From NCBI RefSeq assembly GCF_003790525.1, contig NZ_CP033635.1: a stretch of DNA of 64,000 bases, one strand, 5' to 3'. The position numbers are program-made. The stretch is from Escherichia coli. Its GTDB lineage: Bacteria; Pseudomonadota; Gammaproteobacteria; Enterobacterales; Enterobacteriaceae. Shown in pieces: positions 56,201 to 59,200 of this stretch. Numbering within the stretch: the stretch's first letter is position 1; each line of letters opens with the position of its first letter.

Positions 56201-59200
56201 CACGGCGGGAAACCGGCGGCAGTTTGGCCTTAAGCTGCTGGAAACCATCGGCTTTTTCGACGCGCGCACGGCTGTCTTTCTGAAATTCAGAACGCAGCAA
56301 CGGGTAATCGCTCGGGTGCAGTTCGGTCAGTTGCAGGCTGTCCTGTTCACGCAGTAGCTGGCGAGCAATCAACGGCGAACCGGGGTAATAACGCAACTGA
56401 CCGCTACGGTTGAAGTGTTTTACCACATTGATGTACGCCTCCAGCTCCGCAGGCAAATCGTCCTGCTGCCAGATACGGGCGATACCTTCGAGATATTCGC
56501 CGGTACGCTCGGCATGTTCGCTGCCTAACTGATAACGCCCGGCCCCTGCGTGGGTGTCGAGATAGAGAAACGGTTTATCTTTCTCTTTCAGCGACTCGAT
56601 GATCAGGCTCTGAACGGTATGTTTAAGGACGTCGGCGTGGTTGCCAGCGTGAAAGCTGTGGCGATAACTGAGCATGGGTAAAGGTGTTCCGGTAAGTAAA
56701 AATCGGCCCGTATTCGGGGCGCACAAAAGCCTATCAGGACAGTATACCGAAAAGAGGCCGCCGCCGCGAAAGCGTAACGTTTCTCATTGAAATTCACTAC
56801 ACTTAACCCCATGCTACACACATTATGTAAAGCGCCTGTTGAGCGCTTCCTTAACCTCTTTAACCAGGACTGCGCTAATGACGAATCCGTTACTGACTCC
56901 CTTTGAATTGCCTCCGTTTTCTAAAATTCTCCCGGAACATGTCGTTCCAGCCGTGACTAAGGCGCTGAACGACTGCCGCGAAAATGTGGAGCGCGTAGTA
57001 GCGCAAGGGGCACCGTACACCTGGGAAAATCTCTGCCAGCCGTTGGCGGAAGTGGACGATGTGCTGGGGCGTATCTTCTCCCCGGTCAGCCACCTGAACT
57101 CGGTGAAAAATAGCCCGGAACTGCGTGAAGCGTACGAACAAACCCTGCCGCTGCTGTCAGAATACAGCACCTGGGTAGGGCAACATGAAGGGCTGTATAA
57201 GGCATATCGCGACCTGCGCGATGGCGATCATTACGCCACGCTGAACACGGCGCAGAAAAAAGCGGTTGATAACGCACTGCGCGACTTCGAACTCTCTGGC
57301 ATCGGTCTGCCGAAAGAGAAACAGCAGCGTTACGGCGAAATTGCTACCCGTCTTTCTGAACTGGGCAACCAGTACAGCAACAACGTCCTCGATGCGACGA
57401 TGGGCTGGACCAAACTCGTTACCGACGAAGCGGAGCTGGCGGGGATGCCAGAAAGCGCGCTGGCTGCGGCAAAAGCCCAGGCCGAAGCGAAAGAGCTGGA
57501 AGGTTATTTGCTGACGCTGGATATCCCAAGCTACTTGCCGGTAATGACCTACTGCGACAACCAGGCTCTGCGTGAAGAGATGTATCGTGCTTACAGCACC
57601 CGCGCTTCCGATCAAGGCCCGAACGCCGGTAAGTGGGACAACAGCAAGGTGATGGAAGAGATCCTCGCGCTGCGTCACGAACTGGCGCAACTGCTGGGCT
57701 TTGAAAACTATGCCTTTAAATCCCTTGCTACTAAAATGGCAGAAAACCCGCAGCAGGTGCTGGATTTCTTAACCGATCTGGCAAAACGCGCGCGTCCACA
57801 AGGCGAAAAAGAGCTGGCGCAACTGCGTGCCTTCGCCAAAGCCGAATTTGGCGTCGATGAGTTGCAGCCGTGGGATATCGCTTACTACAGCGAAAAACAG
57901 AAACAGCACCTCTACAGCATCAGCGATGAACAACTGCGTCCGTACTTCCCGGAAAACAAAGCGGTTAACGGCCTGTTTGAAGTGGTGAAACGTATTTACG
58001 GCATCACCGCTAAAGAGCGTAAAGATGTTGATGTCTGGCATCCGGATGTACGTTTCTTCGAACTGTATGACGAGAACAACGAACTGCGCGGCAGCTTCTA
58101 CCTCGACCTGTATGCCCGTGAAAACAAACGCGGCGGGGCGTGGATGGATGACTGCGTAGGCCAGATGCGTAAAGCCGACGGTTCGCTGCAAAAACCGGTC
58201 GCGTATCTGACCTGCAACTTCAACCGCCCGGTAAATGGTAAACCGGCGCTGTTTACCCATGACGAAGTGATCACCCTGTTCCACGAGTTCGGTCACGGCC
58301 TGCATCATATGCTGACCCGCATTGAAACCGCTGGAGTGTCTGGTATCAGCGGGGTGCCGTGGGATGCGGTCGAACTGCCGAGCCAGTTTATGGAAAACTG
58401 GTGCTGGGAGCCGGAGGCGCTGGCGTTTATCTCCGGTCACTATGAAACCGGCGAACCGCTGCCGAAAGAGTTGCTGGATAAAATGCTGGCGGCGAAGAAC
58501 TACCAGGCGGCGCTGTTTATTCTGCGCCAGCTGGAGTTCGGTCTGTTCGATTTCCGCCTCCATGCCGAGTTCCGCCCGGATCAGGGAGCGAAAATCCTCG
58601 AAACTCTGGCAGAAATCAAGAAACTGGTTGCCGTAGTACCGTCTCCATCCTGGGGCCGTTTCCCGCACGCTTTCAGCCATATTTTCGCCGGTGGTTATGC
58701 CGCAGGTTACTACAGCTACCTGTGGGCCGACGTGCTGGCGGCAGATGCCTTCTCGCGCTTTGAGGAAGAGGGCATTTTCAACCGTGAAACCGGACAGTCG
58801 TTCCTCGACAACATTCTGAGCCGTGGCGGTTCAGAAGAGCCGATGGATCTGTTCAAACGCTTCCGTGGTCGTGAACCGCAGCTGGATGCGATGCTGGAGC
58901 ATTACGGCATTAAGGGCTGATCATTCAGTGAAAATCTGCTTAATTGATGAAACAGGCACCGGAGACGGTGCCTTATCTGTTCTGGCGGCCCGCTGGGGGC
59001 TGGAGCACGATGAAGACAACCTGATGGCGCTGGTGTTAACGCCGGAACATCTGGAATTGCGCAAGCGTGATGAGCCGAAACTTGGCGGCATCTTTGTTGA
59101 TTTTGTTGGCGGAGCGATGGCGCACCGACGCAAATTCGGCGGCGGACGTGGGGAGGCAGTGGCGAAAGCGGTGGGCATTAAAGGCGATTATTTGCCGGAT

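Follow-up and report, generated by a model that had tools for sequence, protein, structure and literature searches.

A conserved RNA hairpin in the first codons of rsmJ, a candidate partial terminator in the prlC-rsmJ heat-shock operon of Escherichia coli

Internal partial terminators are known from operons of Escherichia coli, among them T1 between rpsU and dnaG and the rplL-rpoB attenuator. Here we analyze a 64-kb stretch of E. coli DNA (contig NZ_CP033635.1; "the window" hereafter means this whole stretch), in which prlC, the gene for oligopeptidase A, is followed on the same strand by rsmJ, the gene for a 16S rRNA methyltransferase, and we describe an RNA hairpin, followed by a U-rich tail, that is encoded in the first codons of rsmJ and is a candidate for an element of this kind. 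An earlier reading made from the sequence alone (the sequence-only reading) had noted, at 58912-58935, that rsmJ starts at GTG 7 nt past the prlC stop, and had suggested that the two genes are transcribed together and coupled in translation. The spacing is borne out by the sequence and by RefSeq coordinates, and the co-transcription, supported by the presence of the pair on an RpoH list, by a sigma-32 motif, and by conserved adjacency, turns out to have been documented already. As both the annotated GTG and the heat-shock operon prlC-rsmJ (opdA-yhiQ) are standard knowledge, the original observation adds nothing new in itself; what goes beyond it is the hairpin, where the amino acids are subordinate to RNA structure. 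Around the junction, a segment of 3.5 kb matches E. coli SMS-3-5 with 100% identity and is present in 5,422 of 5,426 complete E. coli genomes.

Selection on RNA pairing in the first codons of rsmJ

The hairpin and the tract that follows it span 58954-58983, which corresponds to rsmJ codons 9-19:

58954-58973, plus strand: RNA hairpin AGGCACCG-GAGA-CGGTGCCT, 8 bp with a GNRA-type loop, rsmJ codons 9-16 (terminator scan, fold, and covariation)
58974-58983, plus strand: U-rich tract TATCTGTTCT immediately 3' of the hairpin, codons Leu16-Ser17-Val18-Leu19 (sequence and synonymous constraint)

The hairpin lies 26 nt downstream of the GTG (from +27) and 33 nt beyond the prlC stop. It folds on its own at -15.8 kcal/mol, and with six of its eight pairs being G-C it has the GC-rich stem-loop of an intrinsic terminator; the tail UAUCUGUUCU has 6 U in 10, interrupted, and its synonymous sites are nearly fixed. 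No Rfam family overlapped 58954-58983, even at E-values of up to 10. An extended lower helix, in which an upstream GAUGAA would pair with the U-tract, showed no compensatory changes and is neither supported nor excluded, and a reading of the sequence ahead of the hairpin gave no slippery heptamer of the kind expected of a frameshift signal.

For comparison we scanned one genome per species, which yielded 80 Enterobacteriaceae loci, or 81 with the E. coli reference locus L001. Synonymous variation, normalized for amino acid, was scored in 904 eleven-codon windows over prlC and rsmJ; the 13 lowest all overlap rsmJ codons 3-25, with a minimum 4.2 standard deviations (sd) below the mean. Gly10, Ala11, Gly12, Asp13, Gly14, Ala15, Leu16, Ser17, and Val18 are near-fixed at their synonymous sites in the Enterobacteriaceae loci, whereas the flanking codons are free. 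The constraint includes the U-tract (Leu16 is TTA in 79/79 sequences, Ser17 TCT in 75/80, and Val18 GTT in 78/78), after which the codons vary freely. These data bear on a rival account of the locus, a plain operon with simple translational coupling as in the sequence-only reading, in which the hairpin would be a by-product of a Gly-Ala...Gly-Ala motif in RsmJ: GGCGCC reads the same on both strands, which means that two Gly-Ala dipeptides with these codons pair automatically, and the tight conserved gap between the genes is what a plain operon would have. We nevertheless consider this highly unlikely, since the Gly and Ala codons that are nearly fixed in the hairpin are free elsewhere in prlC and rsmJ (mean entropy 1.14 and 1.22 bits, respectively), amino acid changes in the hairpin are accompanied by a change of the partner base, and the existence of distant RsmJ proteins without the motif indicates that the enzyme does not need it.

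Pairing itself is strongly conserved. In an alignment of 84 sequences, 99.6% of the cells are paired, compared to 31-60% with the partners slid, and compensatory double changes occur at five of the eight pairs, a result reached in 0 of 500 shuffles and characteristic of a conserved structured RNA; RNAalifold independently predicts the same hairpin. The fifth stem pair is A...T (ACC...GGT) in the window and six other species and G...C (GCC...GGC) in the rest, while the loop-closing pair has changed from G-C to A-T in five species. Other altered stems that keep pairing are found in a more distant relative (GGGTGCC...GGCACCC), in Photorhabdus (GGCGCTG...CAGCGCC), and in Providencia (GAGGGTGCCG...CGGCACTCTT). 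Amino acid changes with pairing kept include A11T, A15T, and G14S; the alternation of Thr and Ala at residue 11, of Ala and Thr at 15, and of Gly and Ser at 14 takes place only along with a change of the pairing partner. Because such changes alter residues, and because distant RsmJ homologs lack the motif, it is the RNA and not the protein that is conserved, and selection acts on the RNA structure of the hairpin.

Variation within E. coli points the same way. Over a 34-nt segment, the complete genomes carry an A-U allele (3,505 genomes), a G-C allele (1,905), or a G.U combination (9), with A.C in none, and the missing A.C mismatch haplotype and the rare wobble fit selection on pairing despite linkage. 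A perfect 8-bp inverted repeat with a 4-nt spacer might also be read as a DNA site for a dimeric protein. Here the bases change with complementarity kept, however, and G.U intermediates occur (34 G-U at the basal pair in the 84-sequence alignment, in addition to the nine E. coli genomes); as wobble pairs are meaningful in RNA only, they count against a DNA site, an idea to which we attach very little weight indeed.

Beyond the Enterobacteriaceae, the hairpin is kept in six further Enterobacterales families (genomes of Erwinia, Pectobacterium, Yersinia, Limnobaculum, Photorhabdus, and Providencia), and the U-rich tail is kept in the first four of these and is weaker in Photorhabdus. Three distant rsmJ homologs without prlC upstream have no hairpin. 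One sequence (L085, a contig of Logan SRR23525766, positions 2440-2600) is AT-rich and encodes an RsmJ of 60% identity with a TTG start that overlaps the prlC stop by 4 nt; it may derive from a reduced or host-associated genome. As this sequence keeps prlC upstream yet has lost the hairpin, the hairpin is not obligatory.

Two other features turned up in the same region. The second-lowest synonymous variation, ~2.5 sd below the mean after normalization, was found in prlC at 58380-58440 of the window (codons ~500-518) and at ~58475-58510 (codons ~533-545). It overlaps a weak terminator-like 5-bp hairpin (58410-58424); chance may account for it, as may codon bias in a region where the enzyme is highly conserved. 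An ATG open reading frame (ORF) of 85 codons (58921-59178, minus strand) runs opposite the 5' part of rsmJ and shows no sign of being a gene; the constrained span described above, only ~30 nt long, is a poor match to the ORF.

The junction with prlC and the start of rsmJ

The genes and the elements at their junction are as follows:

56878-58920, plus strand: prlC coding sequence, oligopeptidase A, 680 aa (ATG 56878, TGA 58918-58920; translation and RefSeq annotation of the identical record)
58912-58915, plus strand: AAGG, sole Shine-Dalgarno-like element, 12 nt ahead of the GTG and within the Lys-Gly codons at the end of prlC
58921-58927, plus strand: 7-nt spacer TCATTCA from the prlC stop to the rsmJ start (sequence)
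58928-58930, plus strand: rsmJ start codon GTG (sequence, RefSeq, and comparison across species)
58928-59680, plus strand: rsmJ coding sequence, 16S rRNA m2G1516 methyltransferase, 250 aa (translation and RefSeq of the identical record)

The junction reads ...CAT TAC GGC ATT AAG GGC TGA TCATTCA GTG AAA ATC TGC TTA... The RefSeq annotation of prlC and rsmJ in SMS-3-5 converts to 56878-58920 and 58928-59680 of the window, and in the K-12 annotation, which has prlC at 3643140-3645182 and rsmJ at 3642380-3643132 on the minus strand, the gap is likewise 7 nt. The rsmJ product, also known as YhiQ, is the m2G1516 methyltransferase of 16S rRNA (PMC3531124, PMC7056703).

Comparison across species argues for GTG 58928, rather than an upstream ATG, as the true start of rsmJ. 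The N-terminus M-K-I-C-L of RsmJ aligns without gaps, with M1, I3, and L5 invariant over 12 genera; in 38 of 82 loci, the frame read upstream meets a stop before any start codon, and the next in-frame start downstream of the GTG is at codon 33. An in-frame ATG at 58886, 14 codons upstream and within prlC, is used in some database entries of 264 aa; in many species it lies in another frame or is cut off by a stop, and as the gap between the genes is 0, 4, 6, 7, or 8 nt depending on the species, the frames shift and an ATG within prlC cannot be a shared start. The PDB chains 2pgx, 2oyr, and 2pkw begin at the same residue as the GTG-initiated RsmJ, which is weak evidence because constructs follow annotation.

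The arrangement is widespread. We found prlC directly upstream of rsmJ in all 80 of the other Enterobacteriaceae species, and the adjacency extends to Erwinia, Pectobacterium, Yersinia, Photorhabdus, and Providencia, and so to every Enterobacterales genome sampled; for Limnobaculum, where no prlC gene was called, a prlC C-terminus can be read upstream of rsmJ. Among the 81 Enterobacteriaceae loci the rsmJ start is GTG in 78, TTG in 3, and ATG in none, and the gap to prlC is 0-8 nt in 70 (7 nt in 45 loci, 8 in 20, 6 in 3, 4 in 1, and 0 in 1) and 128-134 nt in the remaining 11. Among the more distant genera, Yersinia, Limnobaculum, Photorhabdus, and Erwinia have GTG 3-8 nt past the prlC stop, and Pectobacterium and Providencia have ATG starts that overlap it. 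On this comparison of sequences, a compact junction with a weak start is the rule, yet not indispensable.

A few of the loci call for comment. In Leclercia adecarboxylata NCTC13032 (L077, ~2980-3010) the match to RsmJ begins only at residue 8 despite a GTG 8 nt past the prlC stop, pointing to an indel or frameshift early in the rsmJ of this assembly, within its first codons; the hairpin sequence is retained, and after reading its sequence we counted this locus among the 78 with GTG. Two contigs labeled as "uncultured Lachnospiraceae bacterium" (L008, URRQ01000016.1) and "Chryseobacterium sp. 18061" (L056, CACSKA010000004.1) carry a prlC-rsmJ region 93-97% identical to that of E. coli, and are probably contaminated or mislabeled.

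The ribosome binding site of rsmJ appears weak as an independent one, consisting of a GTG with AAGG 12 nt away and nothing closer. A Shine-Dalgarno spacing of 12 nt is suboptimal. While AAGG is found in nearly all species, this is owing to the Lys-Gly codons, and as the Lys codon alternates freely between AAA and AAG (entropy 1.0), selection for a stronger Shine-Dalgarno is not evident. With the stop and start only 7 nt apart here, close enough for termination-reinitiation, the short gap, the GTG, and the poorly placed Shine-Dalgarno make it plausible that prlC and rsmJ are coupled by reinitiation. As a coupling device we also considered a mini-hairpin of 5 bp, in which the stop of prlC pairs with the start of rsmJ (58916-58929), and rejected it, as its stability does not exceed chance (z = -1.4) and other species do not conserve it.

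The 11 species with the long gap have an inserted repeat of ~126 nt that sits precisely in the space between the two genes, from which it follows that tight spacing is dispensable; the rsmJ hairpin is kept there. These loci (L020, L025, L027, L034, L038, L052, L055, L059, L063, L066, and L079) include Citrobacter, Raoultella, Phytobacter, and Kosakonia, and the repeat is found ~130 nt before position 3001 of each, or before position 346 in L079. It is a dispersed repeat with a median of 6 mostly intergenic copies per E. coli genome, absent from the window, and looks like an ERIC (enterobacterial repetitive intergenic consensus) element, although the analysis itself identifies it only as a dispersed repeat.

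Promoter, transcript end, and operon context

The boundaries of the transcription unit are marked by the following features, the last being the neighboring gene:

56787-56812, plus strand: sigma-32-type promoter motif TTGAAA-N14-CCCCAT, upstream of prlC, the sole match in the 64-kb window
59682-59718, no strand assigned: strong hairpin between rsmJ and dtpB, likely the end of the operon (fold -26.8 kcal/mol, z = -7.9)
59729-61198, minus strand: dtpB, convergent with rsmJ (ORF and annotation)

The motif TTGAAA-N14-CCCCAT matches the sigma-32 consensus. Its single occurrence in the window compares with 0.04 expected, and a motif of this type stands at the equivalent position upstream of prlC in 72 related loci. 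At the other end, the hairpin at 59682-59718 is a perfect helix of 14 bp with an A-rich left flank and a right flank containing U, and is likely a bidirectional terminator serving both rsmJ and dtpB. Consensus scans thus place a promoter before prlC, none before rsmJ, and a hairpin after rsmJ; the two genes share the plus strand with a gap of 7 nt, and their order is conserved. Short same-strand gaps are the usual spacing within E. coli operons and are not statistically remarkable alone; the junction exceeds chance because the gap is conserved across species and not because it is short.

That prlC and rsmJ belong to a single heat-shock (sigma-32) transcription unit is therefore supported, as well as already documented. 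In Salmonella the homologous opdA and yhiQ are said to be cotranscribed under heat-shock control, a finding attributed to Conlin and Miller in 2000; our literature searches on rsmJ with prlC, and on opdA with yhiQ, found nothing. A table of the RpoH regulon gives "prlC-yhiQ" as a single transcription unit (PMC2710865), and prlC has been named among the protease genes controlled by sigma-32 (bioRxiv 10.1101/338939).

The sequence-only reading had named a separate rsmJ promoter and transcript as the observation that would overturn its suggestion. A consensus scan of the plus strand over 56400-60000 gave no sigma-70-like site, and hence none between prlC and rsmJ, which is weak negative evidence. 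The contrary view, that rsmJ has its own promoter in the 3' part of prlC and is expressed mostly independently, the short gap reflecting genome compaction, draws on the report that rsmJ expression tracks growth phase like that of other rRNA methyltransferase genes (PMC7056703), which would be unexpected for a pure heat-shock gene. Against it, beyond the result of the scan, the last 40 codons of prlC show normal synonymous variation, so that no conserved embedded signal is visible, and the pair is treated as one unit in PMC2710865; we consider an independent promoter distinctly unlikely. The same ordinary variation in the last 40 prlC codons gave no support to a small RNA from the 3' end of prlC.

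A possible attenuator and its relation to known systems

The reading we prefer, with a probability of about 0.5, is that prlC and rsmJ form one sigma-32 unit with a weak, reinitiation-dependent GTG, and that the hairpin is a partial intrinsic terminator or pause site, that is, an attenuator, within rsmJ. From the anatomy of the junction, the operon context, and the selection on RNA structure observed here, we infer both a termination activity and its dependence on ribosomes. Transcription would start at the sigma-32 promoter (~56787-56812) and end at the hairpin at 59682-59718, with part of the transcription from the prlC promoter stopping at the U-tract just inside rsmJ, such that only read-through transcripts would give full-length rsmJ mRNA. 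Most initiation at the weak GTG probably comes from ribosomes fresh from completing prlC, and a ribosome already on the first rsmJ codons would prevent the hairpin from forming and so favor read-through. Attenuation and the weak start together would hold the level of RsmJ far below that of PrlC, most of all under prlC induction. The hairpin would then probably restrict the passage of expression from prlC to rsmJ, as opposed to the simple coupling first proposed for this junction.

What favors a partial terminator is the footprint of the constraint, which extends over the stem plus 9 nt beyond it (TTA TCT GTT) and then stops, as expected of a hairpin plus U-tract. The lack of the hairpin in the three distant homologs that have no prlC in front of rsmJ also speaks for this reading. 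In species with a compact junction the hairpin begins ~22-38 nt past the prlC stop. The 33 nt found here are a usual distance for an intrinsic terminator, and place the hairpin outside the footprint of a ribosome on the stop codon.

The main rival to this is a selected RNA structure that acts after transcription, either by blocking 3'-to-5' exonucleases and thereby stabilizing the prlC mRNA or by restraining the translation of rsmJ. The whole operon would then be transcribed, and the prlC part of the processed mRNA would be protected in the manner of a REP element. The evidence for a selected structure (compensatory changes, RNAalifold, the E. coli alleles, and synonymous constraint) applies equally to such a role, the imperfect U-tract suits it, and translation should be affected by a stable hairpin that forms in the first 50 nt of a coding sequence. 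On the other hand, the constraint on 9 nt past the stem would be needless for either an exonuclease barrier or a translational brake, and a hairpin from +27 lies beyond the coverage of an initiating ribosome. We regard a post-transcriptional role as possible, but tentatively so.

Several observations weigh against the partial terminator. With its interrupted U-tract, weaker still in Photorhabdus, the hairpin could be at best a partial terminator. Terminator-like sites recognized by pattern alone numbered 5, against 4.3 expected in shuffled sequence. The insertion of ~126 nt between prlC and rsmJ is tolerated in 11 species, the E. coli allele counts partly reflect linkage between two sites 11 nt apart, and the homologs examined that lack prlC upstream amount to only three. 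Term-seq tables (PMC7815308) contain no 3' end over K-12 3640595-3647653; as this interval includes the end of the operon, for which there is no 3' end either, the operon evidently fell below threshold and the tables neither support nor refute termination within rsmJ. A literature search for a prlC terminator gave nothing relevant, though a prediction of this site may already exist in RegulonDB or EcoCyc.

A more elaborate version of the partial terminator would have the hairpin act as a ribosome-sensed attenuator, with read-through only if reinitiation at the GTG is prompt and the ribosome stays close behind the polymerase. We consider this unlikely. If true, it would tune RsmJ synthesis by translation capacity and by the temperature-dependent stability of the hairpin, and would constitute a feedback loop between ribosome performance and ribosome modification encoded in the first codons of rsmJ itself. 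More generally, the hairpin offers an explanation of how a heat-shock peptidase that is abundant and an rRNA methyltransferase that is scarce could be expressed from one promoter, and the RNA structure at the 5' end of rsmJ is a reason for caution in recoding, truncating, or making reporter fusions there.

The prlC-rsmJ junction can be compared with several described systems. It resembles the translationally coupled trpE-trpD and trpB-trpA pairs in that the stop and start are a few nt apart and the downstream initiation site is weak; in those pairs, however, the codons often overlap (ATGA or TGATG) and expression is near-equimolar, whereas rsmJ begins at a GTG after 7 nt and the products of prlC and rsmJ are not partners in a complex. 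With the pyrBI, trp, and his leaders it shares a terminator-like hairpin within reach of a translating ribosome, which would suppress termination, but it has no leader peptide, alternative antiterminator, or obvious metabolic signal, and the ribosome concerned would be the one on the regulated gene itself. In its effect it would resemble the attenuators of the rpsU-dnaG-rpoD and rplJL-rpoBC operons, where a U-tailed hairpin within the operon stands between an abundant first and a low-abundance second product, and as with T1 and the rplL-rpoB attenuator the rsmJ hairpin would set the ratio of the two products. T1 and the rplL-rpoB attenuator are intergenic, however, while the putative terminator described here lies in codons 9-19 of the downstream gene and dictates its N-terminal sequence.

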